NCBI GenBank assembly: GCA_963826535.1
Contig: CAWGXL010000011.1
Location: 512,809 to 576,808, forward strand
DNA from: an uncultured bacterium
GTDB lineage: Bacteria > Patescibacteriota > Microgenomatia > Levybacterales > UBA12049
Direction of reading: 5' to 3'
Length of the DNA stretch: 64,000 nucleotides
Shown here in pieces: positions 1-31,378 of the stretch (position 1 is its first letter; each line of letters begins with the position of its first letter). The notes under the pieces were generated by a model. It saw only the letters and a program-made list of their open reading frames with translations. It was not told the DNA's origin and ran no database searches. The position numbers and the translations under genes are program-made.

Positions 1-3000
1 GTTGAGTTTCCGGGGTAAAGAGCGCCATTTGAAGAGTTCCAGAAGTTGGTGCCTGCACCGAGAGCACAGGATTGCCAGGTTGGAGCAGATGCTCCTGAGA
101 CAAGACAGAGGTTTTGGGTGGCTGTGGATGCTTGGGCTAGAAGTCCTGTAGTTTGGGTGCCGTAAATGACGCCATTCTGGCCATTCAAGTTATTGATTTG
201 TACGTTTCCGTTTTGGAGGACATTGAAGACAGTTGCGGAGTTATTCTTTACCTGTAAAATGTCTCCTGTGCTTGATGAATTTACCTGCTGGACAATTAAG
301 GCAACATTGCTGTCTGCGATGTTTCTGCTGATGGTTGTACCTGTACTGGCAGTATTTACTAACGCATTGTTAACGGTACTGTAATTTCTTAAACTTTGTC
401 CATAAATGTCCCCATTATCTACAACTTCAAAATTGGGAGCAGTGATGTATCTGTTGGAAAGAGTAGCTGATCCGGCAAGACCCAGATACCCATCGGGATT
501 AACAACAAACTTTCTAGCTCCGGACTTTGACGCTGTGAAGAGGTCGCCTGAGCCTCGATTGTCAACAATTAGGGAGGCAAAGTTTGAGTTAGCAGATATA
601 GATGCGGCAGGAGTCGTGGCGGAGTTGCCGCGGACGTCGAGGGTGGCGAGGGGGGAGGTGGTGTTGATGCCGAGATTGCCGGTACTTGTAACTCTTAGGC
701 GCTCTGTTGTTGATCCTCCTGAGGGTCGTGTACCTAGTGCAAAATATCCCGCAAAGTCGCTTCCTGTTGAACTCTCTTTAAACCCGCCTAGCATTGTAAA
801 TGTTCTTGTTGCATCAGCATTACCGCCAAAAGCTAAAGTTCCTCCTTTGTCTATTGCCGTAGCATCTGTGGTAAAGATACGCAGATTGCCTATATTGTCT
901 GAAAATCCTTGATAAGAATCACTTACAGATAATTTTGAATCAGGTGTTGTCGTCCCGATGCCGACGTTGCCTGTGCCGTTGGGGTTGAGGAGGATGTTGC
1001 CGGTTGTGTTGTAGGCGGAAGAGTTGCCTATGGTAAACGTTTGCCTGTTGGTTGTTGCCAGTGTACCATCGCCTGTGAGATAGGCTGCGTTATTGCTTGA
1101 GTTGGCTGAGATAGAGGCAGTTGGAGTACCTCCTGCTACATTGAGGAAGCCGAATTTGGCAGATGCAGTTGCCGTACCGCCAACCAGAAGATCAACGGTT
1201 GAGTTGCCCGGGTAGAGAGCGCCATTACTTGAGTTCCAGAAGTTGGTGCCTGCACCTAGAGCACAGGATTGCCAGGTTGGAGCAGATGCTCCTGAGACAA
1301 GACAGAGGTTTTGGGTCGCTGTGTTGGCGGAGGTTACAACTCCTGTTGTGTTGGCTGCATAAAGCACTTGATTATTGTTGGCAGTTAGACCTGCAAGAGT
1401 TAGATTCTGTCCTGAGGCAATTGTTGCTCCCGCGTTGAAGAGGGTAAGGTCTGCAAGGGCAATGTTGCCTGTGGTATCTCCTCCCAGAGTTAGTGTCTGA
1501 TTGGCGGTTGATTGAATGGTTGGAGTTGTGTAGAGTTTGAGTGCTCCTGAGATAGAGGCAGTTCCTGATATATCTAGGAGGGCGGTTGGGGTTGTGGTGC
1601 CAATACCGACTCTGCCGTTTGATTGGATAACCATGGCTTCTGTGCCCCCTTGGATGAGGGGATTAGTTCCCCAGGGAGCATTGACACGGAATTTAATACC
1701 ATTGGAACTGTCTTCACTGGCAAGGGTAAAGTAGTCGTCTGTGCGGTTGATTCCGATAGAGGCGGCATCGTTGTTGAAGTCTGTAAATAAGATAGATGCT
1801 CCGGCAACAGTTGTATCACTTATAAGAAATTTGGACGTATTACCTCCCAGGTTGGTTTCCGCACCTATCTGAAGGGAAGTTAAGGGGGAGGTTGTCCCGA
1901 TGCCCACGTTGCCACCCGCATCAATCACGAATGGAGTCGAGTCACCTGCGACATCATTGACCAGGAAGGAGTTACCTGTGCCGACGTTGGTGAGTGAGAA
2001 TACTTCCGCGTTGTCGGCAAGAAAGTCTGTTGAGGCATCAAGACTTAAAGTGTCTGAGAATTCTGTGAAACTCAGAATATCATCGGCGATTGAGATATTT
2101 GCTTCATTGCTGGGGCTTGCGGTAAGCAGAAAATCGGTGCTGAAGTCCATAGTGTCTACATCTGTACCAACAGGCGTTTCATTATTTTCAACATTTATAA
2201 CTCCTGCAGTTCCTAATCCTCCTGAATCCACCTTACACTCCCACAAAGAAGTTGTAGTATTCCATTTGAGAATTTGATTATTCGCGCAGCCCTTAAGAAG
2301 AGTTAATCCTGCAGAGGAGACTTCAAGACCTGAACTTGAGGAGGCAACGCCTGCATTTCCTGATGAAGTCAGGTTTATACCTGTACTTACTATTTTATTC
2401 ATTGTATCTGAGGTGAGGATAACTCCTGACCCACTGGCAAAGGTAAGTGTATCTGTATTACCACTTGCCGAGAAACTGGTATTGCCGACTGTTATTGTTT
2501 TGAATATATTTTGAGAAGAGCCCGGATCCTGGTTGGAGATAGTTGTGCCGCTTATGGCGATACCTGTTCCCGGGGTCAAAGTGATGCTGCCTGTCTGGCC
2601 CTGAAGAGAAAGTACACCGCTATTAGTTATAGTTGTGCCGCTGATTGCAATTCCTGAGCCATTGGTGAGGGTTACTGCGCCTGTTGTCCCCTGGAAACTG
2701 GTGACACCTGTATTGGTAAATGTGGTACCTACTATATCTATGCCCGAACCGGTAAAGCTTACAGCTCCTGTCTGGCCCTGGAGAGATAGTACTCCTGTAC
2801 TAGTGATCACAGGATTTACCTTAGCACCTGAAACTGCTATGCCATTTCCTGCGACTACACTTTGGAATAGATTGGGCGCAGTGAGAGTTCCTTTGATATC
2901 TACATTTTTATTGAACCTCGCATTTTCCCGGAAGAAGCTTTCTACGTTAACTGTAAAGATGAAGCGGGGACTAATTGAGTTGGTTGCTAAGACCGCGGCC

Positions 3001-3242
3001 AAATTGCGGGGATCAGTAAGAGGAGAGGGAATCTTAGACTGCTCATCGCTACTTAGGGAAGACAACCATGATTTAAGCGGGGAGCAAAAGGCAAGAGACT
3101 CATGCTTTAGGCAGAGCTCATTCAACTGAGCTTTAATAGTACCGGAGAGGAAAGAGGCATTGACAGATGCCAGACCAACTAAAAACAACACAACAAGACT
3201 TGTGTTGAGCAGCCATATTTTTCGGTTTATTTGTTTAAACAT
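1..3242 (-). CDS. giant secreted repeat protein, N-terminal >1080 aa (partial; continues beyond window start)
   Basis: Uninterrupted minus-strand reading frame from ATG at 3240-3242 to position 1. N-terminus MFKQINRKIWLLNTSLVVLFLVGLASVNA is signal-peptide-like. Thr/Gly/Ser/Asn-rich body with recurring motifs (GNVGIGTTSP, RVGIGTTTP, NLGINTTSP). Plus-strand ORFs 406..912, 1163..1438, 1900..2277 and 2635..3129 are antisense artefacts. Confidence 0.7.
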   Translation of the reverse strand, partial: MFKQINRKIWLLNTSLVVLFLVGLASVNASFLSGTIKAQLNELCLKHESLAFCSPLKSWLSSLSSDEQSKIPSPLTDPRNLAAVLATNSISPRFIFTVNVESFFRENARFNKNVDIKGTLTAPNLFQSVVAGNGIAVSGAKVNPVITSTGVLSLQGQTGAVSFTGSGIDIVGTTFTNTGVTSFQGTTGAVTLTNGSGIAISGTTITNSGVLSLQGQTGSITLTPGTGIAISGTTISNQDPGSSQNIFKTITVGNTSFSASGNTDTLTFASGSGVILTSDTMNKIVSTGINLTSSGNAGVASSSSGLEVSSAGLTLLKGCANNQILKWNTTTSLWECKVDSGGLGTAGVINVENNETPVGTDVDTMDFSTDFLLTASPSNEANISIADDILSFTEFSDTLSLDASTDFLADNAEVFSLTNVGTGNSFLVNDVAGDSTPFVIDAGGNVGIGTTSPLTSLQIGAETNLGGNTSKFLISDTTVAGASILFTDFNNDAASIGINRTDDYFTLASEDSSNGIKFRVNAPWGTNPLIQGGTEAMVIQSNGRVGIGTTTPTALLDISGTASISGALKLYTTPTIQSTANQTLTLGGDTTGNIALADLTLFNAGATIASGQNLTLAGLTANNNQVLYAANTTGVVTSANTATQNLCLVSGASAPTWQSCALGAGTNFWNSSNGALYPGNSTVDLLVGGTATASAKFGFLNVAGGTPTASISANSSNNAAYLTGDGTLATTNRQTFTIGNSSAYNTTGNILLNPNGTGNVGIGTTTPDSKLSVSDSYQGFSDNIGNLRIFTTDATAIDKGGTLAFGGNADATRTFTMLGGFKESSTGSDFAGYFALGTRPSGGSTTERLRVTSTGNLGINTTSPLATLDVRGNSATTPAASISANSNFASLIVDNRGSGDLFTASKSGARKFVVNPDGYLGLAGSATLSNRYITAPNFEVVDNGDIYGQSLRNYSTVNNALVNTASTGTTISRNIADSNVALIVQQVNSSSTGDILQVKNNSATVFNVLQNGNVQINNLNGQNGVIYGTQTTGLLAQASTATQNLCLVSGASAPTWQSCALGAGTNFWNSSNGALYPGNS

Positions 3243-3579
3243 ACTAATAATCCATATCAAATACACGAATAAGATTCGTTTACTTCCTACCTAGTAAGCA
3301 AGCGAATTCAATCTTCGTTTGAAAAATGTGATTAATAGTATTTTCTGTTTATTTCTGTTTTGTATTATGGGGAATTGTTCATATACTTTAATTGAAACAT
3401 AGTAGAGATAGGGAATGCAATAGAAATGCAAGAATAAAAGGCCAATCGCTAATAAATAGATAATTTAATTGTTCTACTGGTAGGTTGTTGTACTGGTTGA
3501 GTAGTAGTTTGATAGGTTGTTGAGTTATTACTCCGGGATTGTAATATTCGCTGAACTACGCAGTCAGGTTATTGAGGGT

Positions 3580-3609
3580 TTGACAAAAGCGATGTTTTTT
3601 GGCTATTCT
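3580..3609 (+). promoter_or_regulatory. putative sigma-70-type promoter of the ATP synthase operon (TTGACA-N18-TATTCT)
   Basis: TTGACA at 3580-3585, 18-nt spacer, TATTCT at 3604-3609. AGAGG ribosome-binding site before ATG at 3627. Confidence 0.4.
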
Positions 3610-3626
3610 AAACATAGAGGTTTATT

Positions 3627-4415
3627 ATGAGGCGAGTGTTCGCTTGTTTTATGGTGATTTTATTTTTTTTCTTGGTGGTGCCGTTGTGGCAAATTATTCC
3701 CGTTTCTTACGCTCAAAGTGATACTTCTTCCTCAGGAATAGCAGTTTCAATACAGGTGGTTGATAAAAAGGTTCAAGAGGGGGATATAATTACTCTTGCA
3801 CAAAAGGGGTATGCATTGGGTACTGTGCCATATGACCCTAATATTTTTGGTGTGGTTGTCAAAGATCCGGCAATCGCATTTGAGAGTAGTCAACCAGGTT
3901 CCTACCCGGTGATATCACATGGGAAAGTTTTCATGCGGGTATCAACAATTAACGGAAAGATAAAAAAGGGGGATTTGATTACGACTTCAGTTATTCCAGG
4001 AGTAGGACAGAAAGCTACAGAAACGGGTTTTATTGTTGCTTCAGCTTTGGAGGATTATGGATCTAGTTCTACAAAAGACGTCGGCAAAATTCTTGTGGTG
4101 CTTAATGTGGGGCAGGGAAATATATCAACGAATACAACCGGTAGCTTACTTAATGTATTTAAAACTGTCATGAGCGCGCCTCATCTGGCGCCATTAGCAG
4201 TGGTTAGATATATTTTTGCAGCGGTGATGGTTATATTGTCATTTGTAATTGCTGTAGGATATTTTGGCAGGATTTCAAGTTTAGGTATTGAAGCGCTGGG
4301 AAGAAATCCTTTGGCCAGCAAGATGATTACAATTGGTATAGTTTTACATGTTTTTTTAGCTCTTGTTATAGTTGCAGTTGGAGTCGCAGTTGCTTATTTC
4401 TCACTGGTGATTTAA
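3627..4415 (+). CDS. membrane protein: N-terminal signal/TM, ~170 aa extracytoplasmic domain, C-terminal ATP synthase c-subunit-like hairpin (no conserved carboxylate)
   Basis: First gene of the atp operon. C-terminus ...GIEALGRNPLASKMITIGIVLHVFLALVIVAVGVAVAYFSL resembles the c-subunit loop (ARQPE-like RNP) plus two helices. The position of the essential Glu/Asp (18 residues after the Pro) is Leu. Confidence 0.45.
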   Translation: MRRVFACFMVILFFFLVVPLWQIIPVSYAQSDTSSSGIAVSIQVVDKKVQEGDIITLAQKGYALGTVPYDPNIFGVVVKDPAIAFESSQPGSYPVISHGKVFMRVSTINGKIKKGDLITTSVIPGVGQKATETGFIVASALEDYGSSSTKDVGKILVVLNVGQGNISTNTTGSLLNVFKTVMSAPHLAPLAVVRYIFAAVMVILSFVIAVGYFGRISSLGIEALGRNPLASKMITIGIVLHVFLALVIVAVGVAVAYFSLVI

Positions 4416-4478: not shown

Positions 4479-5192
4479 ATGAGTAATGTACTGCCTGCGG
4501 AATTATATTTGACGATTGGACCGATCGCGGTTCTTTCATTGGCTTTGGCCGCTGTGGCAGTTTCTTATGTATTTTTGCTTATAAAATTGGGTAAGAGTGA
4601 AAAGGATAAAGTATTTCTGCAAAGTAAAATCAGAGATCATGCATCGGATGTTTTACGGGATGCACATGAGAAACGTTTAAGAATTCTTCAAGAGGCCACG
4701 GAAACAGCACGAACAATAATCAATAATACACAGTTATTCAGCGATGAAGCAAAGACTCAATTTGCTACTGATCTTAACACCACGCGAAGGAAACAAGATG
4801 AACTATTAAATAAAAGAAGTGAGGAAATTTCAAAGCTGTATGAGCAGTTTGCTAACGATGTGCATGCCGAGACAACAGAGCAATTTAAAGGTGTTGCAAA
4901 AAATATGGAAAACTATGCAATAACCGGAATAGGAGAATTCAAAACGGCATTGGAAAGCGAGAAGTTATACATGCAGAAGCAGCTTGAGGTAAAAGTAGAA
5001 GAGGAGTACAAAAAGGCACAAAAGAATATTGAAGATTACAAAATAGATCAAATGAAGAAGGTTGATAAAAAAGTTTTTGACATTCTGCACGCGCTGATAC
5101 GTGATGTTTTGGGTAAGTCGTTGTCCTTGAAAGATCATGAAGAACTGGTGCAAAAAGCATTGGCACAGATGCAGACTGAGATGAATACTTAG
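4479..5192 (+). CDS. atpF: F-type ATP synthase subunit b-like (N-terminal TM helix plus long coiled coil)
   Basis: N-terminal hydrophobic helix, then a charged coiled-coil body. Sits between the c-like and delta genes. Confidence 0.55.
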   Translation: MSNVLPAELYLTIGPIAVLSLALAAVAVSYVFLLIKLGKSEKDKVFLQSKIRDHASDVLRDAHEKRLRILQEATETARTIINNTQLFSDEAKTQFATDLNTTRRKQDELLNKRSEEISKLYEQFANDVHAETTEQFKGVAKNMENYAITGIGEFKTALESEKLYMQKQLEVKVEEEYKKAQKNIEDYKIDQMKKVDKKVFDILHALIRDVLGKSLSLKDHEELVQKALAQMQTEMNT

Positions 5193-5282: not shown

Positions 5283-5768
5283 ATGGAAGAGAAGTTATTA
5301 AAATACAAGTCTTTGATCGAACTTACTAAAACAACTGATGATGTTGTTATTCTTGACCAAGAAATTGGTTTGCTTTTGCAGAGTCTGTTTCATTTTGACA
5401 AGAGAAAATTCGAAGAAATTTTGGAAAATCAGATTCGCATACGAGTTGCTTTGGAGATACGCAAGCTTCTGCAAACAAATATACATATGAGTAAAGAGGA
5501 GATAAAAGCACTTCTTTCCACTGGATACAAAACTATTTGTGCACTTCCAATACTTAGACTTACATTAGCTTTTGAACCAAGCGAATTGGTTATTAATAAT
5601 ATTTCCTATTGGGCACGGAATAATCTAGAGAAAGGAATACTAATTGATTTATCTTTGGACAGTAGTCTATTAGGAGGAGCTATTATTATGTATAAAGGAA
5701 AATTTTATGATTATTCCCTGCGAATAAAGCTGAAAGAGATTTTTCAAAAGGGAGACCTTAGCCTTTAG
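5283..5768 (+). CDS. atpH: F-type ATP synthase subunit delta (OSCP)
   Basis: Size and operon position fit. C-terminal LGGAIIMYKGKFYDYSLRIKLKEI matches the delta C-terminal motif. Confidence 0.6.
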   Translation: MEEKLLKYKSLIELTKTTDDVVILDQEIGLLLQSLFHFDKRKFEEILENQIRIRVALEIRKLLQTNIHMSKEEIKALLSTGYKTICALPILRLTLAFEPSELVINNISYWARNNLEKGILIDLSLDSSLLGGAIIMYKGKFYDYSLRIKLKEIFQKGDLSL

Positions 5769-5817: not shown

Positions 5818-7371
5818 ATGAAATCTTTTACGGAATATCTTAATGAGTATAAGGAGATTGGGTTTGTTTTGAAGGTCAATGGATTTATAGTCTTTATTGT
5901 GGGACTACCATCTGCGCGTGTTGGAGAACTGGTGATTTTTGAAGATAATAGTATCGGTGAAGTTATGTCGTTTGACGGTGACTATATTGAAGTTATGGTT
6001 TTCTCCCGAACTGCGCTTAAGTCACGAACGAGGGTTTCGAGGACAGACCGTTTTTTGACTATTCCGGTTGGGGAATCACTCCTGGGTAATGTTATCGATC
6101 CTTTTGGAGCGTCTTTAAATCCAGATCAATATATTCATGAGTCTACTGCCTTTGTTCCGCTTTGGACCGAAGCCTGGGGCATTTCCAGAAGGAAACGAAT
6201 TGACCGGCCTTTTGAAACGGGAGTGAGCCTGGTTGATTTGGCCGTTCCTTTGGGACGCGGACAACGAGAACTTATTATTGGGGACCGAAAAACAGGTAAA
6301 ACTTCTTTTGTGTTACAGACAATATTATTGCAGGCACGGGCAGGATCAATCTGTATTTATGCCGGAATAGGTCGTAAAAAAGCAGATATCAAGAGGATCG
6401 AGGAATATTTTATAGAGAACAAAATACAGAAAAATACTATAATTGTGGCTGCATCTTCCCATGATCCGGCAAGTTTAATTTATTTGACGCCTTATTCCGC
6501 AATGGCAATCGCAGAGTATTTTCGTGATCAGGGGAAAGATGTTTTTGTGGTTTTCGATGATTTGGTAACCCACGCAAAATTTTACCGCGAGATAGCCCTT
6601 CTTTCGGGCAGATTTCCAGGCAGGAATTCATATCCGGCAGATATTTTTTATGCCCATTCGCAATTATTGGAGCGTGCGGGAAATTTTGTTACTTCCAATG
6701 GTGACGCCTCGATCACAGCATTTGTAGTCGCGGAAACTCCACAGGGAGATCTTTCAGGTTATATTCAGACAAATATCATGTCAATGACTGATGGACATAT
6801 CTTTTTTGATAATGATTTTTTTATGTCGGGCCGGCGTCCGGCTGTTAATCCATTCCTTTCGGTGACCAGAGTAGGAAAGCAGGTTCAGAAGCCATTAAGA
6901 CGAGATGTTAGCCGAGAACTCAATTCGTTTTTTACCTACGCACAGCGTCTGCGTAATTTCGCTCACTTTGGCGAGGAGGCTACTCAATCTGTTCGGAGTG
7001 TGCTGGAGATGGAGGTTAAGATTAATGAATTTTTTACTCAACCAATATCTTTGATTATTCCTTCTGCTTTTCAGGTTTTTGTTTTTGCACTGATTTGGCA
7101 GAATAGATGGAAGGATGTAGCTATAGAGACTATGAGAAAGGAAATCCTGCAACTGCTTAAGGTTTATGAGACTGATACAAATGTCCGGAGCTCGGTTGAC
7201 CTTATGGTTTCCGAATCTAAGACTTTGAATGATTTTTTGAATAAGATAATAAAGAGCAATTTGGAAGTGCTGCAGAAGAAGCCTGAAGTGCCGGCTGAGA
7301 AAGTGATTCCTGGGGCTGACTTGGCAGAAGAAGCGGTGAAAGCAGAAAGGCAAATAGTGAGTGGTGAATAG
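5818..7371 (+). CDS. atpA: F-type ATP synthase alpha subunit
   Basis: P-loop GDRKTGKTS. FDDLVTHAKFYREIALLSGRFPGRNSYPADIFYAHSQLLERAG closely matches the alpha consensus. Confidence 0.9.
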   Translation: MKSFTEYLNEYKEIGFVLKVNGFIVFIVGLPSARVGELVIFEDNSIGEVMSFDGDYIEVMVFSRTALKSRTRVSRTDRFLTIPVGESLLGNVIDPFGASLNPDQYIHESTAFVPLWTEAWGISRRKRIDRPFETGVSLVDLAVPLGRGQRELIIGDRKTGKTSFVLQTILLQARAGSICIYAGIGRKKADIKRIEEYFIENKIQKNTIIVAASSHDPASLIYLTPYSAMAIAEYFRDQGKDVFVVFDDLVTHAKFYREIALLSGRFPGRNSYPADIFYAHSQLLERAGNFVTSNGDASITAFVVAETPQGDLSGYIQTNIMSMTDGHIFFDNDFFMSGRRPAVNPFLSVTRVGKQVQKPLRRDVSRELNSFFTYAQRLRNFAHFGEEATQSVRSVLEMEVKINEFFTQPISLIIPSAFQVFVFALIWQNRWKDVAIETMRKEILQLLKVYETDTNVRSSVDLMVSESKTLNDFLNKIIKSNLEVLQKKPEVPAEKVIPGADLAEEAVKAERQIVSGE

Positions 7372-7470: not shown

Positions 7471-8349
7471 ATGAGTGATTCACAGAAAACTGTTGGAATT
7501 GATATTGAGGCGATGTTGTCGATGAAGGAGTTTATCATCAGCCATGAAGAGATCGCGGCAAGCAGCATGCGGCGGATCCGGGATGCGGTTGTAAATAGAC
7601 GGGATTTTCTCGCAGAGCTTATTCAACTTTATAATGAGGTTAAGAAGAGCTATAAGCAAGAGATTAAAGGTTCCCACAATACCAAAGGCTTAGGTGGACA
7701 GGCGAAACTGAGCGTACTTAAGAAAATTAATAAAACGGTATGCGTTTTGTTATCTACAAATACCAGCTTATATGGAGATATCGTGAGAAATACTTACGAT
7801 CTTTTTAACGATTACCAAAAGAAGGAAAATGGCGACTCGGTTATAGTGGGAAAGGTCGGCAGGCGGGTTTTTGAGGCGGATAAGCCGGGGGTAAAATTCA
7901 CTTATTTTGATTTTCCAGATACGACTATGGACAATACGCTTTTGAAAGCAATTGCTCTTCATATCATTCAATATGAAAAAGTCGTTATTTTCCATTCAAA
8001 ATTTCAGTCACTTGTACGTCAGGTTCCTACCGCATTTGTGATTTCAGAGAGTAAGATAGATGAGACAGCCAGTTCAACTGATATTAAATATATTTTTGAG
8101 CCTTCAATGGAAAAAATTATGGAATATTTTGAGAAAGAAATTTTCAGTTCTATATTTGAGCAAACAATGCATGAATCACAACTCTCGAAATTTGCATCAC
8201 GCATGGTGACTCTGGATCAGGCTACTGATAGTATTAAAAGTAGACTGTCAGAATTAAATTTAAAAGAGAGACTTTTACATCATCAAATAATAAATAAGCA
8301 ACAACTTAATTCGATAACGAGACTGGTGATGTGGAAGAGAAATAGTTAA
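7471..8349 (+). CDS. atpG: F-type ATP synthase gamma subunit
   Basis: 292 aa between alpha and beta; divergent helical N- and C-termini. Confidence 0.6.
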   Translation: MSDSQKTVGIDIEAMLSMKEFIISHEEIAASSMRRIRDAVVNRRDFLAELIQLYNEVKKSYKQEIKGSHNTKGLGGQAKLSVLKKINKTVCVLLSTNTSLYGDIVRNTYDLFNDYQKKENGDSVIVGKVGRRVFEADKPGVKFTYFDFPDTTMDNTLLKAIALHIIQYEKVVIFHSKFQSLVRQVPTAFVISESKIDETASSTDIKYIFEPSMEKIMEYFEKEIFSSIFEQTMHESQLSKFASRMVTLDQATDSIKSRLSELNLKERLLHHQIINKQQLNSITRLVMWKRNS

Positions 8350-8370: not shown

Positions 8371-9759
<1,389 letters not shown>

Positions 9760-9900: not shown

Positions 9901-9942
9901 GATTTTATTGTTTTTATGAATACTTTAACGAAAGGGAATATT

Positions 9943-10182
9943 ATGTTGGTTATTAGGCGGAAGGAGAAGGTGCTTTTTGAGGGGGAGGTTCGCGCACTAA
10001 CTACTTATAATGAACGTGGAGTTTTTGATGTACTTTATGAACACGCTAATTTTATATCAATAATTAATAAGAATTGTTTGATTCATAAGACAGATGGAAC
10101 TACAAGCGAGGTGAAGATTGAAGAAGGGATATTGCGAGTACATGAGAATAAAGCGACGGTGTATTTGGGGATAATAGGCTAA
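9943..10182 (+). CDS. atpC: F-type ATP synthase epsilon subunit (N-terminal beta-sandwich domain only)
   Basis: MLVIRRKEKVLFEGEVRALTTYNERGVFDVLYEHANFISII is epsilon-like. GGGA ribosome-binding site before ATG 9943; the ORF track alternative start is 9916. Confidence 0.6.
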   Translation: MLVIRRKEKVLFEGEVRALTTYNERGVFDVLYEHANFISIINKNCLIHKTDGTTSEVKIEEGILRVHENKATVYLGIIG

Positions 10183-10189: not shown

Positions 10190-10262
10190 TAAAAGTTCAA
10201 AATTAAAAGTTATATATAATAAAAGACAAACTTTGAACTTTGTTCTTTAAACTTTTAACTTA
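10190..10262. terminator. bidirectional hairpin terminator between convergent atpC and giant gene
   Basis: Inverted repeat TTAAGTTAAAAGTT...AACTTTTAACTTAA flanked by T/A runs, built from AAAGTTC-type heptamers. Confidence 0.5.
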
Positions 10263-13200
10263 ATTTATAATCCACCAGTTAATCTTTATATCTTTGTTGA
10301 TTGTATAGGGAATTGCAATAGTAAATGATTCACCGGTTTGGCGGGCTATATATGGGCTGAGTCCTTGGGTGTCTGATGCTGCTGAGAGATAGACTAGAGA
10401 TTCAGTCTTGACATACGGACTGATAATTGTTCTTTCAGTTTCATATGCCGTTATAATAGCAGTTCCGGCTGAAGATGAGGCTATGGTTTGAACAAGGGAA
10501 GTGTCAGCTTGCGCGCCTCGGATGATGTTGAATCCATTTGCGGCGACGCGCGCGAAAATTCCTGAGCCGGAGGCAATAATATCACCTACCTGATTAACAG
10601 CAAGAATTCCACTACCTGAAGAGTTTTGAATTATTAATTTTGACTGCTGATTGTTCGATTGTTCCATTGTTCCATTGTTAAGCTCCAGGATTAGGTCTTG
10701 ATTTGGGATGGGCGCGATTAGTGAGGCTGTCAGTTTGCCTTTGACAGCAACATCTTTGGCAAAGGTTGCGTTGCCGCTAACTTTAAGATTTCCGTTGGTG
10801 TCAATGGCTACTAAGTTTCCCATAATCGAAAGATTGCCTTGACGAAGTGGTTGTAGTTCTAAGTCACTGCCTAATGTGTTTATAGTGTTATTTGCTAAAA
10901 TCAAGTTTCCGCCTACATTGAGATTTCCGGCTATGGCAACATCCGAGAGAGTTGAAGGACCCAGCACCATCATTCCTTTGGAAAATTGGGCACGGTCTGA
11001 TTTTAAGGATGGTGTATAAGCCAGTTGTCCTGATAGGGAAGAAAGATTGGCGTAATCATTTGTTAATTGTTGATTGTTGTTTATGAGCTGCAATAATTCT
11101 AAATTATCCGGTTGAGCCGGGGGAGTCACATTCTCAATGATTGGTAATCCCGATATAATCGGGACTGGTTGGTGGTTGGTGATTGATGTATTTTGTAATG
11201 CGGACGTAGTCGCGGTTGGGCTGTTGAAATTTGCAGGAGAAGAGGCTATTAGTGAGGCTGGGTATAAGCCTGCACCTTGCTCCGCAGAGTTTGATGCATT
11301 CTCCGAAGCAGAACCTGAGGCATTAAAGATATTAGTGACATTGGTTATGTAAGCAGCTGAAAGGCTTGCAGATACATTATTATCAGAGGCAAGTTGACCT
11401 GAAGTACTTGCAACAGGGTTAGGGGTTAGGGGTAGGGGTGTTGGAGAGGCTGAGGTTGAGGCTAGAGGACTTAGAAGCTTGTTAGCTTTCAGCTCCTGGC
11501 TATCAGCTATCAGATTTAACTTTATACTTAATAATTCTTCTTTGATAAATTGATCTATCGATTCCTGGATAATTGCAGCTATGTATTCTTGAAGAGTTTG
11601 GCCACCTATTGTGATATTATCTGAAGTTACCTGCAATGAATCCGTCGCTGTTTTTTCGGCCTGTATAAATCCTACTTGAATATTAGTAATAATATTTTTT
11701 GTTAAAGCTTGAATAAGGCTGGAACTAGTACCTAAATTATCTTCAAGATTATACTTTTCAGTATAACCTGTAGAAGTAGAAGGGTCAAAAAATGATAGGT
11801 TAATAAAGACTATAATTTTGCCTGTTTGGTTTGGATAGGGATTTGTATAACTTTCCAAAGCTTTTCCTATAACTGTGCCTGACTTACTGGCTTTCATAGC
11901 TACACCAGGCAGAGAGGAGCTGGTTAAAAAGTCACCTGGTTGTATTATCCCATTTTCCGAGGATACTTTAACCGGTACTCTTCCAGAAAGCGCAATTGGA
12001 ATGATATATGGATGAGCACTATCTGTCAATGCATCAGAATTTAACGTTATACCAGGACGGGTTGAAACAATACCAATGGTCTGGGATTGATAAGCTTTCA
12101 CAGTTTTAATAACTGAAGGGTTATTATTATTTTCTTCAGGCATGACAACATCTCCCGGTTCCAGAGAATCAGCTGATACATAGTTTTCCGCTACATCAGC
12201 ATTTTGTACTATTGTGTTGGCTGCATAGATTGTGCCAGATGTGTTCCCTGCGCATGGTCCTGTAGTATTTTTTACACAAAGAGACCCGGCGATTTTTAGA
12301 GTATTTTCAGGTTTATTATCGGCAATTCCTATATTCCCGTTTTGAGCTATGGTAAAACTGGGGGATCCTGATGAAGATGAGGTGAAGATATCACCAGTAG
12401 TGTTTCTTTGCCAGAAACCGCTTACGGTCGCGGTTGGGCTGGTATATATATTGTCAATATAGCCGTTATTCCAGTGTTTTGTGGCAGATCCTAGATCGTA
12501 AGTGCCAGAAGTAAAAGGGATTAAATTCGAGGCTACATTGCCTGAGATAATTAGGGAGCGATCTGCGCTTATTGTTATGCCTCCGTTTGCAATAAGCGTG
12601 TTATTTATTTTGGTCGCTCCTGAGGGCCCACCTATAGAAATAGAACTCGCAGAACCAGCGATATTTAGATTGATAGTATTAGTGTTAAGTAGATCAAAGG
12701 AGGTATTTGCCGATGTTAAGTTGTTACCATTGATGACCAGATTCCCGGCAAATATGCCTGTACCATTGTTTTCGAGGGTAAACTTAGCAGTCCCACTTGC
12801 CGAAGCGCTAATTATGGGACCTGTAGAGTTTTGATTGATAGTGAATGCTGATTGGCCACTTGAGGTGGCTAGAACTGCAAATAAATCGTCAATTTCAACT
12901 GCACCTTGGGCTGAAGTTATATTATTATTGTTTGTTGTATTTTGTAATGGTTTTTGTAGATCAATTACTCCAATTCCGTTCGGAGAGATTTCAATATTGC
13001 CATCCGATCCTGCTGTTGAATTTAAAACAAGAGTTTTGCCGGAAATGGTAAATTTACCTCCGCTCGCCTGAAAGATTGGATTAGCTTTTCCACCTATAGT
13101 AAGATTTCCAGCAGAGTCCAATGCAAGTACAACATTATTTGTTCCAGCACCATTTTTAGTTATAGGTATTAATCCCTGTAGTTTTTCTGAATTATTTGAT

Positions 13201-14717
13201 AAAGATAATGTGGCTAGTTGTTGCCTTGGTTCCAGTTCATTGTCTGTACCAACTGTCATACCAAGATATAGGTTGGGGTTTTCTGAAAAAATAGAAGATA
13301 GCAGTTGATTGTTTCTGCCTATAATTGCGGAAAATTTACCTTCTTGATTTGGTCTGATATCTTGCACTTCCTGCCATAGTAATGCAGAACCTGAGGCAGA
13401 TTGGTTATTATATAGAGCGAATCTCAGCGGAGTGACTGAGGTTATTGGATTATTCTTTTCGTCTGATATTATTCCCTGAAATCTGATAGTTTTTGGAGGA
13501 GGTATAGAAGCACTTGCAAATACAGGTTTTTGTTTACTTAAATCCGGGTAAAACGAACCATATAAAGCAGACCCAAAAAGGGTTGTAAAAATGATAAGAA
13601 TACCTACATGCAAGTAAGTTGTTATAGGATATGAATGATATATTTTGTACCATTTTGGTCTTGTATGTTTAAGGTGATGAAATATTTTTTTATGTTTTGG
13701 CAATCCATTTATGGATATGCTTAAGGGGGCGTATGTTGATTTTGGAATATTTTGAATATCATGTTTTTTGATATTTTTTGATATATTAAATATAGATAAA
13801 AGGGGAATAGTTTTTTTATTTTCATCAATTCCTGCGTGAATGTCTACCTGAAATGGCTTAAAAACGTTTCCTCCACTTAATAACCAGATAAAATGTTCAG
13901 CTTTAGATATTAGTTTTGTAATAGGCAAGGTGAGGAGAAAGTCTAATATTGTTAAATATCCTAGAGATTTTTCTATATTTTCATTTTCGTTTATTTTTTG
14001 GATATTTTGGCCTTGTATTTCTTTGAAAATACTTAGATTAGTTTTTATTTTATGTCTTGTAGTTTTTTCTGTTTGAAGATTTGGTATTTGGCTTATTTTG
14101 ACTGTTTTTTTTCCTAGCCATGAAAGGTATTTGCGTATGGAGGATAATTTACGGTTTATTGAAGTAGGAGATAAGTGGACTACTAATAACAGCCTGTTTT
14201 TATATTCATTGATGACGAATTGATCTATGTTGTTTATTATTTCTGTGTTCTGGCTAGCAATAGGCTTAGATGGTGTAACTTTTTCGAACCAAGAAAGAAA
14301 TTGTTTTATATCCATAAGGTAGTTTTTCGTAGTTAACTTTGACAGATTATCACTTAATAGATATAGCCTGAATTCGTTAAGCATAAGCCGGTCAATTGGG
14401 AGTTCTTTAGTGTCAATTTCCTGGTCGAATGGGTTGTTAATTATTACTTTATTAAATTTTAAGAAATAGAAGAAGCTTCTAAGTGAAGATAAATAGCGTT
14501 CAATTGAGCTTGTGGATGCCTTATCTTTCAGCAAAGACATTTTATAAAGTTTAATTGTCTCAATGCTTATCTTTTTTGGAATGAAGGCGGAATTAGAGTA
14601 TTCTTCGCTCCATCTTATAAATCTTCTGGCGTCAGAGATATAATTTTTAACTGTAAATTTTGACGGTTTATTTTTTTTGGATAGTAAATGTATTTTGAAT
14701 TGTTCTAAAATATTCAT
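10260..14717 (-). CDS. giant membrane/surface protein (1485 aa): two tandem phage-integrase-N-terminal SAM-like (core-binding-like) domains, TM segment, large Thr/Ser/Asn/Gly-rich extracellular repeat region
   Basis: N-terminal ~200 aa contain two repeats resembling the tyrosine-recombinase core-binding domain (KNYISDARRFIRW...IERYLSSLRSFFYFL; TKNYLMDIKQFLSWF...INRKLSSIRKYLSWL). Hydrophobic helix at about aa 360-385 (YPITTYLHVGILIIFTTLFGSALYG). No C-terminal catalytic integrase domain. Plus-strand ORFs inside are antisense artefacts. Confidence 0.75.
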   Translation of the reverse strand: MNILEQFKIHLLSKKNKPSKFTVKNYISDARRFIRWSEEYSNSAFIPKKISIETIKLYKMSLLKDKASTSSIERYLSSLRSFFYFLKFNKVIINNPFDQEIDTKELPIDRLMLNEFRLYLLSDNLSKLTTKNYLMDIKQFLSWFEKVTPSKPIASQNTEIINNIDQFVINEYKNRLLLVVHLSPTSINRKLSSIRKYLSWLGKKTVKISQIPNLQTEKTTRHKIKTNLSIFKEIQGQNIQKINENENIEKSLGYLTILDFLLTLPITKLISKAEHFIWLLSGGNVFKPFQVDIHAGIDENKKTIPLLSIFNISKNIKKHDIQNIPKSTYAPLSISINGLPKHKKIFHHLKHTRPKWYKIYHSYPITTYLHVGILIIFTTLFGSALYGSFYPDLSKQKPVFASASIPPPKTIRFQGIISDEKNNPITSVTPLRFALYNNQSASGSALLWQEVQDIRPNQEGKFSAIIGRNNQLLSSIFSENPNLYLGMTVGTDNELEPRQQLATLSLSNNSEKLQGLIPITKNGAGTNNVVLALDSAGNLTIGGKANPIFQASGGKFTISGKTLVLNSTAGSDGNIEISPNGIGVIDLQKPLQNTTNNNNITSAQGAVEIDDLFAVLATSSGQSAFTINQNSTGPIISASASGTAKFTLENNGTGIFAGNLVINGNNLTSANTSFDLLNTNTINLNIAGSASSISIGGPSGATKINNTLIANGGITISADRSLIISGNVASNLIPFTSGTYDLGSATKHWNNGYIDNIYTSPTATVSGFWQRNTTGDIFTSSSSGSPSFTIAQNGNIGIADNKPENTLKIAGSLCVKNTTGPCAGNTSGTIYAANTIVQNADVAENYVSADSLEPGDVVMPEENNNNPSVIKTVKAYQSQTIGIVSTRPGITLNSDALTDSAHPYIIPIALSGRVPVKVSSENGIIQPGDFLTSSSLPGVAMKASKSGTVIGKALESYTNPYPNQTGKIIVFINLSFFDPSTSTGYTEKYNLEDNLGTSSSLIQALTKNIITNIQVGFIQAEKTATDSLQVTSDNITIGGQTLQEYIAAIIQESIDQFIKEELLSIKLNLIADSQELKANKLLSPLASTSASPTPLPLTPNPVASTSGQLASDNNVSASLSAAYITNVTNIFNASGSASENASNSAEQGAGLYPASLIASSPANFNSPTATTSALQNTSITNHQPVPIISGLPIIENVTPPAQPDNLELLQLINNNQQLTNDYANLSSLSGQLAYTPSLKSDRAQFSKGMMVLGPSTLSDVAIAGNLNVGGNLILANNTINTLGSDLELQPLRQGNLSIMGNLVAIDTNGNLKVSGNATFAKDVAVKGKLTASLIAPIPNQDLILELNNGTMEQSNNQQSKLIIQNSSGSGILAVNQVGDIIASGSGIFARVAANGFNIIRGAQADTSLVQTIASSSAGTAIITAYETERTIISPYVKTESLVYLSAASDTQGLSPYIARQTGESFTIAIPYTINKDIKINWWIIN

Positions 14718-16230
14718 AGGCGTATCCTATATATTAGCCTTGAAATTATACAGATTATACCGTGAACTTTATACCTAATAATAGCTTATAACCTTTAGAG
14801 AAGAGTTGTCAATAGGCATAAATGATATATATTTATATATTTATATATATTATTATATATAGAAAATAAGACGAACTATTAGCAAATGCTTTGTGAAAAG
14901 TTTTTTTTAACCGTGAAAATCATTAATTTAGCCTGGTAGTACTAAATATGGGTATGGATAGGGATCTAAAGTGGAGTTAACATGGCTAGTTTTGTAAATA
15001 TACATAAATTAAAAAGTAATTTTTACTTATTTATATTCTTAAATCTTAAATTTGCTTGTCTTAACAGTCTAAATTTATTAATATTGAAAAGTATATTAGT
15101 TATTAACATTTATACGGATGATAAAGTAGGGCAAAAATTTAATCAGGTAAAGTAAATGTCTATTTCAACCCGTTTTAGATCTATTTTTATAACTTTAATA
15201 TTATATAATATGGGCTTATTTTTAATTAGTTTAACTCTATGTTTTTAGATCTTATAGTAATAGTCAACTTTTGAGTATTAATTTCTTATATACTGTCCTT
15301 AACTCTAATTTACTATTTATCAGTAGCTATTGTTGAGTGCTAGGTTATTAATATTATTATTTGGACTATATTGTTAACTAATTATGCTAATTTCGTTTGT
15401 CAGTTTATAAGCATATCTCTAATAGGGCTATTCTTTTATAGAGGTATAGAATAGCTCTTAAAATTTTATCTGGAGGGTTATTAGTTTTACTTATTTAAAT
15501 ACATTTAATATTATAAGTTTTTAGTTCGTATTTATTTTTTAAGTATAATTATTGGTAATTTCAACTCAATTATTGGGTCGTATAATGAGTTTGCCGGGGT
15601 CTTTTAATATATTATATTGTTTTTTTAGAGTTCAATTAGCTTTCAGCTAATTAAAAGTCTATCTATTTCTTAATTAAGTCAATTTTTGCTTACTAATATT
15701 GGTATTTATGTTAATAGTATCAATTACCTATATATATTTAGGTAATTAAATTTATCTTATAATTTTGCTTTATATCATTTTTTCATCAATTTAACTCATC
15801 TTAAGTAGCAGCTTTTCTTCTAGCCAGGGCCTCTGAAAGGCCATATAGGACTTTAATTCTCTTAAATAGGGGCATTGTGTACTGGAAATCTATTATCTAT
15901 TCCCTTATTATATTTTCTTTTTTACATATATTAAATCAATTCTAGGTAAACTAAACTATCCCTTATCATCAGGCTATTTTTAAGTCTTGTAGTTTTCATT
16001 TTAATCTTATAATAGTACTTCTATTTTTGTTTATAATAGTTATAATATTTGGCTTTTTTATGCCTATTTTAATATTATAGGTTAAATGGTATATATATTT
16101 ATGCTTTAAGATATTATTTACCTGTGAATTACCTTTTAGATATGGTTAGTCGCAATGAAAAGTATTAACCTACTTTATTCTAATTGCAGAGCTGTTCACA
16201 TTATTGTTAACATATTATTAGGATGAAAAT
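14718..16230. other. 1.5 kb extremely AT-rich ORF-free region
   Basis: No ORF >60 aa on either strand. Poly-TA tracts (14820-14870). Lies next to transposase remnants. Confidence 0.5.
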
Positions 16231-16232
16231 GA

Positions 16233-17040
16233 CGAAATCTGCCCTTCGTCTGTCAAGTGGGGATAAGATTATTATAATTAAGAAAGTATTAGGAGGTAAA
16301 TCTATATCCTCGTCCTGTAGAAATGCAGGAATTTCACGAACGATATTCTATAAGTGGTTAAAGCAATAGTCTAGAGGCACTCCTAATAGTATTATTAAGG
16401 ATCTTTCAGCAAGAAATCCAAAAGGAAATCAAAACTGGAGGAAAATCGAAAGCAAACTATCACGCAGGATAGTAAAATTAGCATTAAGTCATCCTGATTA
16501 TAGTATAAGAACTATTGCTACAAGTTCAGAATTAAGTATTGGTTTTGTGTGGGAATTACTTAATAATAAATCACTTGCAACTAAATCTGATAGAAATAAA
16601 AGCCTTGATGTTTATGGGAAAATATATATAGGCCGATTATAGGTAGCGATAAGGAATTGATGATTAGGAGGTTTGAAAATGGTGATTCAATTAATACAAT
16701 TTGTAGGGATTTTCGAATATCCAGAACTATATTTTATAATTGGTTAAAAAAGTATAAAAAATCTAATAGTAATATTGAAGTTTTAAAGAACAGGAGGCCA
16801 AGTGGCAATGAACATTGGAGGTTTATATCAGGTTTAAATGAAATAGTAGCAGATTTTATAACAATTCATCCGGAATGTTCATTAAATCAAATACATTAAC
16901 TAATTCTTGAGAAGAAAGGAGTTAATGTCAGTAGATCCGGTTTATAATATATTTTAAAACGTTTGGACCATAATACTGCTGATAAAAGGCTTAAATATGC
17001 AGCTGCTCACAAGCTTGTAAGCAGACAATTGTACTCAGTG
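16233..17040 (+). pseudogene. two tandem degraded copies of the N-terminal HTH region of an IS630/Tc1-like transposase (no DDE domain)
   Basis: Copy 1: MTKSALRLSSGDKIIIIKKVLGGKSISSSCRNAGISRTIFYKWLKQ* then RNPKGNQNWRKI...HPDYSIRTIA in another frame. Copy 2 (16657..16899): ...ICRDFRISRTIFYNWLKKYK...RRPSGNEHW..., then LILEKKGVNVSRSGLYNILKRL after a stop. Frames are broken by stops. Confidence 0.5.
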
Positions 17041-17084
17041 CCAGACTTAGAATTGCCTCGAATTCCAAGGTATTCGTTCCTTTC

Positions 17085-17140
17085 TTCCCCCCACCCCTGT
17101 CAAGCAGGCGTGCTCCTTGGTCCGCCTCCCCATATAATAA
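17085..17140. repeat. degenerate copy of GC-rich MITE-like element
   Basis: CCCCACCCCTGTCAAGCAGGCGTGCTCCTTGGTCCGCCTCCCC parallels the 9781 and 19621 elements. Confidence 0.4.
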
Positions 17141-17574
17141 AATAATTTCTTCCTTTGCTTATTTTTTGGGGATCTCCATTTCTACTTTTTTGTCCGCTAT
17201 ATTACTACTATATATATTTAATATTTATTCAGGAGAAAGTATACCCTATAAAATTGGAATCTTTTTTGCTTTCATCTCACTATTCCTGGGTCTTATTTTT
17301 TTTCTTTATTCCCTCAAGTATTATATTTCTATTGCGGTTGTGTTGTCATTCTCCAGACAAGTAGATTCCACTCCGTCCAGACTTAGAGGGGTAGGAGGCC
17401 ATTTGACCACGTCAAACCCTGGGGCTAGCTCAGCCTTTGCAAGATTTCTAGCTGGTGTGTTTGGGGTATCGATCAGTGTTGAGTCAGATCCTAAATTATC
17501 CGGTACGTGGCACAGCCGGTTCATATAAGCTTTCCTACATTTGTTAATTCGGGAGTGGGTTAATTTATTCTTTA

Positions 17575-22735: not shown

Positions 22736-23419
22736 ATGGATACTTCGGGCCTTCGAGCAAAATATTCTCCGATACTTCGTAAATATGCTCTTCCATTGAC
22801 TCTCTTAGCGCTTGGTTTGATATTCTTAGTTTATGGTATGATCCAGTATTTTGCCCCGTATACCTCTCAAAAGGATTTAGAACAGAAAAAAGATAAATCG
22901 GATATTATTTTTGAAGCCTCGTCCAATCTTGCAGTGGACGAGACTAAAGTAGCCGAGTCTCGTATAGTCGGGGTTAAAGATTCAAAGCAGGTTGTAGTTG
23001 ATATCGAAGGAGCAGTGGAGAAACCGGGGGTATATAAGCTTGCAACTGAAGCCCGAGTTCAAGACGTTTTGATTGCGGCGGGAGGAATGAGTAAAGATGC
23101 GGATATGGAGAGAGTTGCACGAGGAATTAATTTAGCGGGCAAGATTATAGACGGAGGGAAGATTTATATTCCGTTTATTGGGGACGTGGAAACAGGAGGA
23201 TCAATTGAGGCGGGGATGTTGGGAGTTGAATCCAAGGATCTAATAAATATTAATAGTGCCGGCGAATCAGAGTTAAATAATTTACCAGGAGTAGGGCCTG
23301 TGACTTCACAGAAGATTATTAATAACCGGCCTTACGGAGGAATAGATGGGTTGGTTGAAAAAAAGGTTGTGGGCGCGAAGGTATTTGAGCAGATAAAGGA
23401 TAAGATAACCGCTCAGTAG
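22736..23419 (+). CDS. comEA: ComEA-like DNA-binding competence protein (TM + SLBB + helix-hairpin-helix)
   Basis: VVVDIEGAVEKPGVYKLATEARVQDVLIAAGG (SLBB-like). C-terminal INSAGESELNNLPGVGPVTSQKIINNRPYGG (HhH). Confidence 0.75.
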   Translation: MDTSGLRAKYSPILRKYALPLTLLALGLIFLVYGMIQYFAPYTSQKDLEQKKDKSDIIFEASSNLAVDETKVAESRIVGVKDSKQVVVDIEGAVEKPGVYKLATEARVQDVLIAAGGMSKDADMERVARGINLAGKIIDGGKIYIPFIGDVETGGSIEAGMLGVESKDLININSAGESELNNLPGVGPVTSQKIINNRPYGGIDGLVEKKVVGAKVFEQIKDKITAQ

Positions 23420-23486
23420 TGTATGCCAAATAGAAAATAGCGAATGGCCAATGGTTGTGGGTTATCATTGAGTCTTTTGAACTAGC

Positions 23487-24782: not shown

Positions 24783-24783
24783 G

Positions 24784-24900: not shown

Positions 24901-24912
24901 TCTATATAAATA

Positions 24913-27384: not shown

Positions 27385-27390
27385 AACATT

Positions 27391-31352: not shown

Positions 31353-31378
31353 CGAGTGGAATATAAAAGGTTTATTAG

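Follow-up and report, generated by a model that had tools for sequence, protein, structure and literature searches.

A seven-gene F-type ATPase operon of an uncultured Patescibacteriota bacterium (Levybacterales; UBA12049) begins with a fusion gene, whose product combines a signal peptide, an extracytoplasmic domain and a C-terminal hairpin that resembles the c subunit of the ATP synthase rotor and lacks its ion-binding carboxylate. The operon lies in a 64,000-nucleotide stretch of contig CAWGXL010000011.1 (assembly GCA_963826535.1, positions 512,809 to 576,808 of the forward strand), which we refer to throughout as the window and whose numbering we use. An earlier note, made from the letters of this DNA, had proposed a membrane-anchored F-type ATPase that is non-translocating or highly derived. 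Our analysis supports this reading: the hairpin resembles that of c, the family as a whole is without the carboxylate, no a subunit turned up in the window, operon included, or in 86 related loci, the F1 motifs are intact and the epsilon subunit is without its inhibitory helices. On a modest balance of probability, the operon encodes a conserved derivative of the F-type ATPase that is specific to the candidate phyla radiation (CPR), moves no ions and uses ATP hydrolysis to deliver work to the cell surface.

All seven genes lie on the same strand in the order c-like fusion, b, delta, alpha, gamma, beta and epsilon (Table 1). This order, first given in the earlier note, is borne out by profile, Pfam or NCBIfam matches for each of the six genes that follow the fusion gene.

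A c-like hairpin without the ion-binding carboxylate

An AlphaFold2 model of the fusion protein, built from a 53-sequence alignment, has a mean pLDDT of 85.8 and consists of a hydrophobic helix (residues 2-21), a beta domain (38-160), a short helix (174-183) and a hairpin (189-224 and 228-261). In Foldseek comparisons with the PDB, the hairpin matches F-type c subunits with TM-scores of 0.7-0.82, rmsd values of 1.7-2.2 Å and 19-25% identity. The c subunit of Bacillus PS3 is among these (TM-score 0.79, rmsd 1.8 Å, 25% identity), as are the chloroplast, Chloroflexus, E. coli, mycobacterial and bovine c subunits. Sequence comparisons point in the same direction. Alignment of the hairpin family profile with nine canonical c subunits by hhalign gives a single ungapped alignment of 68 columns (P = 2e-4), and a hidden Markov model (HMM) of the nine ranks fusion proteins as the top 38 among ~5,500 open reading frames (ORFs); these nine sequences were entered by hand. 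Weak matches to Pfam ATP-synt_C (PF00137) occur in 14 of 53 family members (best E = 0.0014), c subunits account for three of the six matches of the family profile in the PDB (E ~1, aligned at the loop), and two family members have already been labelled subunit c/K by JGI. Individually weak, these sequence results are consistent with one another and suggest a relationship to c. Together with the structural matches, they agree with the earlier assignment of the C-terminus to a c-ring hairpin, and they indicate that the two helices are c-like rather than unrelated to c subunits.

The position and orientation of the hairpin follow those of a c subunit. The fusion gene is directly upstream of b, as atpE is relative to atpF, with the exception of one Woesebacteria-type subgroup in which gpmI is inserted. 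The N-termini of c subunits face outside, and the topology of the fusion protein fits that of a c subunit because its signal peptide places the N-terminal domain outside as well.

In the cytoplasmic loop of the hairpin, the family consensus G-x-E-A-x-G-R-N-P-L-A is invariant and GRNP falls in register with Arg41-Q-P of E. coli c in the hhalign alignment. In c subunits, this RQP/RNP loop is the contact with gamma and epsilon. In the same register, Arg226 corresponds to E. coli Arg41, and the residue 20 positions further on (R+20), the equivalent of E. coli Asp61, is Leu246. Across 192 distinct relatives the R+20 residue is L, I, A, V, F or G and never D or E (0/192), and 127 further cluster representatives have I, L, V, A, F, T and similar residues here. 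The earlier note had likewise placed a leucine at the site of the essential Glu/Asp; this stands when the alignment is anchored on the loop, whereas its pairing of the strings LALVEAL and LALVIVA is two residues off. Among the 192 relatives neither helix of the hairpin has a conserved acidic residue, and the sole conserved polar residue of helix 2 is at R+15 (N in 130, H in 62). Helix 1 is also without the GxGxGxG packing motif and instead reads RYIFAAVMVILSFVIAVGYFGR, with conserved positions R, Y, A, S, F, G and F-G-R. Judged by the carboxylate, the hairpin is outside the canonical c-subunit family. The invariance of the loop and the absence of the carboxylate in all 192 relatives thus indicate purifying selection on the contact with F1 and not on ion binding.

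Subunit a and a free c subunit are absent from the searched loci

We searched for subunits a and c in the window, which holds 64 kb of the 894-kb genome, and in 86 related loci from two CPR superphyla. Neither an a subunit nor a free c subunit was found: the operon and the rest of the window have none, and in the 86 loci there is none up to 10 kb from the operon. The absence of atpB from the operon, noted earlier, is confirmed by counts of transmembrane segments, by phmmer and by Pfam, and extends to the whole window. No operon product has more than three hydrophobic segments, and the multi-transmembrane proteins of the window are ComEC and an MFS fragment. A phmmer search of the window and 84 loci with E. 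coli AtpB, a query entered by hand and used without a CPR positive control, gave a best E of 1.4. For this reason, Pfam was run on all 16 multi-transmembrane neighbours of a-subunit size in 80 loci, of which none matched ATP-synt_A (0/16); they were ABC-2, BacA, MgtE, EamA, ComEC, Bax1-I, M50 and similar proteins, or had no match. Consistently, precomputed Pfam tables of six loci contain neither PF00119 nor PF00137.

Three further candidates were rejected. The 1.7-kb gap between c and b in the Woesebacteria-type loci, a possible place for a hidden a subunit, encodes the phosphoglycerate mutase gpmI. An apparent second alpha-like gene in one of these loci (L058), considered as a second ATPase, is Rho. 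In another locus (L001), the genes without annotation that lie between ribosomal genes L1 and L10 are neither b nor delta.

These results bear on whether the operon could encode an ordinary ion-coupled F1Fo, with subunit a elsewhere or too divergent to be recognised and H+ or Na+ bound at a non-carboxylate site such as the R+15 Asn/His. Such an enzyme would be in keeping with the remaining subunits, which are all F-type and in canonical order, with the strict conservation of that polar residue and with the reach of the a-subunit search, and reviews assume that CPR ATP synthases use or pump ions (PMC11665869; PMC13293708). However, at 86 loci of two superphyla c and b accompany the F1 genes and subunit a does not, some relatives have lost b and delta as well, and carboxylate-less c subunits of this kind are classed as 'non-catalytic' in ProAD. 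In addition, we know of no F-, V- or A-type ring that translocates ions without a membrane-embedded Asp/Glu. We therefore consider ordinary ion coupling improbable.

The stalk and F1 subunits

The b, delta, alpha, gamma, beta and epsilon subunits are all present, and the F1 catalytic motifs are retained. A profile of 26 b orthologues matches Chloroflexus b over both ends (E = 3.2e-7) and Pseudomonas b (E = 1.9e-5), and its alignment with the Chloroflexus protein places the ~70 extra residues in the middle of the protein. Pfam ATP-synt_B is matched by 7/26 b orthologues; the window b protein alone has no Pfam match. The delta subunit is recognisable solely in its C-terminal part, and all NCBIfam delta models score below their cut-offs. 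The alpha subunit aligns from position ~26 of the NCBIfam model, and its N-terminal stretch is therefore short; in canonical alpha this stretch is the delta-binding helix. The beta subunit aligns end to end with an ATP synthase beta subunit of the PDB (2qe7_D, E = 1e-107) and scores 430.8 bits against NCBIfam atpD (cut-off 462.85). The epsilon subunit aligns to residues 11-76 of a 132-residue homologue and is without the C-terminal inhibitory helices; its orthologues range from 84 to ~134 residues, most of them under 105.

Equivalog cut-offs of NCBIfam are also missed by gamma (67.3 vs 194.45), delta (22.5 vs 57.5) and epsilon (31.6 vs 67.25). All subunits of the operon thus fall below these cut-offs, yet score better on F0F1 models than on those for N-ATPases, Mycoplasma F1-like ATPases or the type III secretion system (T3SS). 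The P-loops and GERxxEG residues that the earlier note had described in alpha and beta are found (Table 1), and judged from these motifs the F1 set looks catalytically competent.

An ectodomain resembling phage cement domains

The N-terminal helix of the fusion protein is likely a signal peptide, and the sequence suggests a cleavage site between SYA and QS; family members hardly differ at Ala29. The domain that follows resembles phage structural proteins. Foldseek matches in the PDB comprise capsid structures of Borrelia phage BB1, Pam3 and Sf11 together with the C-terminal fragment of phi29 gp12 and the gp8.5 base (E = 1e-4 to 1e-3), where the match at E = 1e-4 has a TM-score of 0.5 on the target length. 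The Pfam family XM1_gp53_minor_capsid (PF23982) is matched by 31 of 53 family members (best E = 3.4e-7), with the window protein at 17.6 bits against a cut-off of 27, and Phage_cement and Peptidase_G2 are also matched by members of the family, the latter in 4/53. The name 'cement' for this fold is taken from these Pfam matches. An NCBIfam search of the fusion protein gave no match.

Within the ectodomain, the motif TTS-x-IPGVGQKAT (window 3987-4013, residues 121-129) contains an invariant Ser121 and a nearly invariant Lys129, whose spacing recurs in the ectodomain copy of a neighbouring giant protein. These two residues could act as a Ser-Lys dyad like that of self-cleaving chaperone domains, or could be purely structural.

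The resemblance to phage chaperone domains raises an alternative in which the ectodomain is an auto-cleaving assembly chaperone, leaving a mature carboxylate-less c-ring that passively anchors a cytoplasmic F1-ATPase of another or regulatory role. The phi29 gp12 C-terminal fold, the Peptidase_G2 matches (the IMC autoproteolytic cleavage domain), the conservation of Ser121 and Lys129 and the linker at residues 161-185, a low-confidence segment (pLDDT 57-67) that contains the short helix and could be a processing site, are all compatible with such a role. However, the ectodomain is conserved as strongly as the hairpin across 345 species and in the Parcubacteria form, and no cleavage motif was identified in it. 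The arrangement is also the opposite of that in phage tailspikes, where the chaperone domain sits C-terminal to the part it folds; here the domain is N-terminal to a simple hairpin. We give this alternative little weight.

The fusion operon is conserved across the CPR

A protein search with the fusion protein returned 537 relatives, and when one genome was scanned for each species, at least 345 species genomes proved to encode one, so the architecture recurs widely in related genomes. At a cut-off of E <= 1e-10, an exhaustive search with the hairpin HMM gave 405 clusters (50% identity). Every informatively titled relative is from the Patescibacteria, and almost all are Microgenomates (Levy-, Shapiro-, Woese-, Ames- and Roizmanbacteria); many other records bear titles such as 'uncultured Gammaproteobacteria' and are apparently mislabelled. 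From the species scan the best 80 loci were kept, in which the best identity to the window protein is 66% and the window's own genome is not included.

The c-b-delta-alpha-gamma-beta-epsilon order is kept in ~70 of 84 loci, and nearly every one of the 84 has all seven ORFs intact. Two variants depart from this order: eight loci are c-alpha-gamma-beta-epsilon, without b and delta, and a Woesebacteria-type subgroup (L052, L056, L058, L064, L069, L072, L073, L077 and L080) has gpmI, a 2,3-bisphosphoglycerate-independent phosphoglycerate mutase of ~570 residues, between the c-fusion and b. A longer fusion form of 396-590 residues, in which a cytoplasmic HTH_17/MerR-like domain and a transmembrane helix replace the signal peptide, is found in the Parcubacteria (Sungbacteria and relatives) and Berkelbacteria, in the same operon and again with no a subunit. 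The fusion operon is a conserved CPR-wide family and not a one-off.

This conservation speaks to the possibility that the operon is a decaying, functionless remnant of an ATP synthase. CPR genomes are reduced, ATP synthase has been lost altogether from related Microgenomates such as Ch65 (PMC7143001), and the sub-threshold NCBIfam scores described above would suit a remnant. On the other hand, the ORFs remain intact, neither the loop nor the catalytic residues vary, the added ectodomain amounts to a gain of function, and two distinct architectures are kept across superphyla. Decay is very improbable, and conservation brings it close to refuted.

Two observations on the family stand apart from these comparisons. 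The HTH_17/MerR-like module also occurs as small stand-alone ORFs beside the operon (L086 9347-9571, L001 14864-15079 and L003 14776-14985), at the N-termini of the Parcubacteria c-fusions (P0209-P0269) and at that of one neighbouring giant; it may bind DNA or dock to F1. In addition, the metagenome-assembled genome CAZSWA01 contains two divergent and complete c-fusion operons (L010 and L074) of similar GC content, whose beta subunits are 59% and c-fusions 37.5% identical; the first adjoins a 1497-residue giant with the shared ectodomain module, and the second adjoins a 1218-residue ORF cut at the end of the locus. This reflects either true paralogy, with one motor per fibre, or a mixed bin.

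Giant surface proteins adjoin the operon

The window operon is flanked on both sides by ORFs for giant membrane-anchored surface proteins, one divergent and the other convergent (Table 1). The upstream giant has no Pfam match. A giant is directly upstream of the operon in 36 of 72 species loci compared with 20 of 294 background genes of the same loci (odds ratio 13.7, Fisher p = 4e-16). These upstream giants range from 700 to more than 3200 residues and are often cut by a contig end; in two Parcubacteria loci, the giant is instead 3' of epsilon. An HMM of the fusion ectodomain matches neighbouring giants in ten loci, those of the window and nine others, with E of ~1e-16 to 1e-31. Some other giants have Peptidase_S74 chaperone domains, and several begin with cytoplasmic helix-turn-helix (HTH) or integrase-SAM modules.

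The 1485-residue giant of the window carries its phage-integrase SAM-like domains at the N-terminus, ahead of a transmembrane helix at residue ~367, and a DNA-binding-type module is odd on a surface protein. Giants at other loci begin with MerR/HTH_17 instead (L036). The higher-GC stretch at 1-3600 was considered as rRNA and rejected: Rfam found only two tRNAs in the window, and the stretch is the ORF of the upstream giant.

FliI/FliJ/FliH is an F1-related complex that energises type III export, and the F1 described here could by analogy be an export, insertion or assembly ATPase for the giants, in which the c-like ring is a membrane dock or conduit and not a rotor. The strong synteny with giant proteins suits this alternative, the homology of the ectodomain to tailspike intramolecular chaperones and to the module in the giants hints at extracellular folding or assembly, the HTH_17/MerR-like modules on the Parcubacteria fusion, the giants and small neighbouring ORFs could be docking domains, and the loci that lack b and delta look like assemblies with no stator. 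Against this, alpha and beta score far better on F0F1 than on T3SS/FliI models, most loci keep a full rotary set (an alpha3beta3 heterohexamer with gamma, epsilon, b and delta), and there are no secretion-gate proteins nearby. The lumen of a c-ring is moreover plugged by lipid and too narrow for protein passage. An export ATPase is thus unlikely, though it deserves more weight than ordinary ion coupling.

A possible ATP-driven machine at the cell surface

In the reading that we prefer, a CPR-specific F-type derivative that moves no ions, the hairpins would still form a ring under F1, and F1 would hydrolyse ATP rather than synthesise it. We infer hydrolysis because synthesis would have no driving ion path and the inhibitory helices of epsilon are lost. 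Torque or conformational work would then pass not to an ion gradient but to a crown that the ectodomains form on the extracellular side of the membrane, and this crown may act on, or co-assemble with, the adjacent giant fibre-like surface proteins, some of which share the ectodomain module. In its logic, the closest working analogue is the Type 3 F1-like X0 ATPase of Mycoplasma, which powers the MIB-MIP system. A more specific version, which is less likely than not, is an ATP-driven surface rotary machine, in which F1 spins the c-hairpin ring, the crown holds or co-assembles with the giant fibre, and the fibre is turned, wound, extended or retracted. If so, the fibre would serve host attachment, motility or uptake.

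Several points weigh against an ATPase of this kind. That the hairpins form a ring, that this ring rotates and that F1 hydrolyses ATP are inferences, and the geometry of the ring may differ from that of c-rings because helix 1 is without GxGxGxG. The window fusion protein itself has no match to Pfam ATP-synt_C at E <= 1 and is below the gathering threshold. Without an a subunit, nothing obvious keeps the b stalk from moving with the ring, and simple torque delivery is further weakened because the eight loci without b and delta have no known stator. The ectodomain might be removed after assembly, as it resembles auto-cleaving chaperone domains. The link to the giants is purely genomic, giants are common in the CPR, and half of the loci have no giant directly upstream. 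Since the search covered 64 kb of the 894-kb genome, atpB and atpE may lie farther away in it, and in apicomplexans and ciliates highly divergent a subunits have earlier escaped sequence searches.

Reviews take CPR ATP synthases as ion-coupled and find their presence puzzling (PMC11665869; PMC13293708). Given a rotor without an ion-binding site and no channel subunit nearby, the assumption of ion coupling is probably wrong for at least 345 Microgenomates species genomes and for the Parcubacteria sister form. If the surface rotary machine is real, part of what is annotated as 'F-type ATP synthase' in the CPR would not be an energy-conserving enzyme, which bears on why organisms without respiratory chains keep an 'ATP synthase'. 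Metabolic reconstructions that score alpha, beta and gamma genes as 'complex V' would overstate the chemiosmotic capacity of these organisms. How such organisms energise their membrane becomes a question in its own right.

Other features of the window

The promoter-like site just 5' of the fusion gene is at most compatible with a promoter, as such sites in the region number 21 against a shuffled expectation of 18.8, which is no excess, and a scan of the region for terminators and promoters gave nothing above background. GC skew is ~+0.1 to +0.3 in nearly every 2-kb bin of the window (1-64000) regardless of gene orientation, and the cumulative skew climbs monotonically. A one-strand G/C disparity has been published for the UBA1400 Microgenomates (Ch65, Collierbacteria and Beckwithbacteria), for which unidirectional replication was proposed (PMC7143001).

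Beyond the convergent giant, 14718-17165 is a 2.4-kb AT-rich region (~26% GC) without long ORFs, which holds only short HTH-like fragments (16223-16369 and 16657-16899) resembling transposase remnants and has no Rfam match and no clear repeats. A DNA-uptake locus at 22736-25776 consists of ComEA, with SLBB and HHH domains, followed by ComEC split in two ORFs, one with the Competence domain (23487-24782) and one with the metallo-beta-lactamase domain (24913-25776). Two pairs of paralogous genes have near-identical N-termini: 29073-31352 and 52542-54656, which encode membrane-anchored proteins, one with a pectate-lyase-like beta helix, and 33582-34490 and 62434-63342. The blocks at 26000-32000 and 52000-54000 have a GC content of 0.47-0.49, above the rest of the window.

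Table 1. Coordinates of the operon, its subfeatures and its neighbours in the window.
Feature	Position	Strand	Description
Giant membrane-anchored surface protein	3..3290	-	>1096 residues, runs off the window; divergent from the operon; one N-terminal transmembrane helix
Promoter-like site	3580..3609	+	TTGACA-18-TATTCT; 10/12 matches, just 5' of the first gene
c-like fusion protein	3627..4415	+	262 residues; signal peptide, cement-like ectodomain and carboxylate-less c-subunit hairpin
Signal peptide (residues 1-29)	3627..3713	+	model helix 2-21; putative cleavage SYA/QS read from sequence
Extracytoplasmic beta domain (residues ~33-165)	3723..4121	+	resembles the phage capsid-cement / phi29 gp12 C-terminal chaperone fold
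c-subunit-like transmembrane hairpin (residues 186-262)	4182..4412	+	AlphaFold2, Foldseek, hhalign, Pfam, HMM ranking
Invariant cytoplasmic loop (residues 220-230)	4284..4316	+	G-I-E-A-L-G-R-N-P-L-A; equivalent of the c-subunit RQP/RNP loop
Leu246 codon	4362..4364	+	CTT; position of the essential Asp/Glu in c subunits
Subunit b	4479..5192	+	237 residues; one N-terminal transmembrane helix and long coiled coil, ~70 residues longer than usual
Subunit delta	5283..5768	+	161 residues; Pfam OSCP E = 5.5e-5, 23.8 bits (cut-off 22.3)
F1 alpha	5818..7371	+	517 residues; P-loop GDRKTGKT, short N-terminus; NCBIfam F0F1 alpha 415.7 bits (cut-off 554)
F1 gamma	7471..8349	+	292 residues; Pfam ATP-synt E = 9.4e-24
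F1 beta	8380..9759	+	459 residues; P-loop GGAGVGKT, catalytic GERIREG
Epsilon	9916..10182	+	88 residues; N-terminal beta sandwich alone; Pfam ATP-synt_DE_N E = 8.8e-10
Giant surface protein	10260..14717	-	1485 residues; two cytoplasmic integrase-SAM-like domains, transmembrane helix, fibre-like ectodomain; convergent, downstream of the operon
Ectodomain-module copy in the 1485-residue giant (residues 848-976)	11790..12176	-	fusion-ectodomain HMM, E = 2e-26

Comparison with known systems

The fusion operon has much in common with canonical F1Fo (atpBEFHAGDC): the gene order from c onward, a beta subunit that aligns end to end, the P-loops and GER..EG, and a b subunit with one transmembrane helix and a coiled coil, while the R-N-P loop of the hairpin is as in mitochondrial c. 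It differs in having no atpB, a Leu in place of the carboxylate, no GxGxGxG in helix 1, a c protein with a signal peptide and an ectodomain of ~130 residues, an epsilon without C-terminal helices, a b longer by ~70 residues and an alpha shorter by ~16-25 N-terminal residues. It is also distinct from the N-ATPases, as it is without atpQ/atpR, a and canonical c, and its subunits score well below the cut-offs of the alt_F1F0 models (alpha 352.6 vs 750.5, beta 404.2 vs 752, epsilon 18.5 vs 100.1). ProAD lists 20 F/N-ATPases with a c subunit lacking the carboxylate, which it labels 'non-catalytic', and A-ATPase c/K cases as well. These loci share with the fusion operon a c without the essential carboxylate, and differ from it in that no ectodomain fusion is described for them. 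The fusion family would count as an incomplete set in ProAD because ProAD calls required a and a recognised c.

The ectodomain appears to share its fold with phage cement and tailspike chaperone domains, as suggested by the Foldseek matches and the weak Pfam matches. Those phage domains are usually trimers on larger assemblies. Unlike them, the fusion ectodomain is cellular, is probably secreted by a Sec signal, is tethered to a c-type hairpin and is repeated within giant CPR surface proteins. Full-text literature searches found no description of the fusion architecture, and the fusion ATPase appears to be an undescribed variant among the F-type and F1-like ATPases, one that its sequence would place outside the Mycoplasma X0 families.

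The mycoplasmas nonetheless offer the nearest comparison. The Type 2 F1-like X0 ATPase is the gliding motor of M. mobile. In Mycoplasma, the Type 3 enzyme is required for the surface MIB-MIP system, its cluster has seven genes in which a 12-transmembrane subunit and a small cytoplasmic subunit replace Fo, its subunit MMCAP2_0577 has a signal peptide, an ectodomain and two C-terminal transmembrane helices, and its alpha-like subunit is without the N-terminal helix (PMC12994834). The CPR operon is similar in combining F1-derived alpha, beta, gamma and epsilon with no ion-translocating Fo, in its signal-peptide, ectodomain and two-helix subunit, a resemblance of architecture alone, in its coupling to surface proteins, which in the CPR is genomic, in its short alpha N-terminus and in its occurrence in a host-dependent organism with a reduced genome. 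In contrast, the fusion protein has no detectable sequence relation to X0 proteins, and the CPR operon keeps b and delta and is without the 12-transmembrane or 19-kDa subunit. Mycoplasmas also keep a separate and genuine F1Fo. The NCBIfam models for the Mycoplasma F1-like subunits give scores far below their cut-offs for alpha (274 vs 520 and 349.4 vs 600) and beta (366.9 vs 570 and 340.8 vs 850), and the CPR alpha and beta resemble genuine F1 more closely than they do the MSC_0618/0619 or MMOB1660/1670 models. After the mycoplasmas, the CPR operon would be a second independent case of an F1 motor recruited to the surface of a host-dependent, genome-reduced bacterium, and its recognisable c-ring relic would show how such a machine can evolve from F1Fo.

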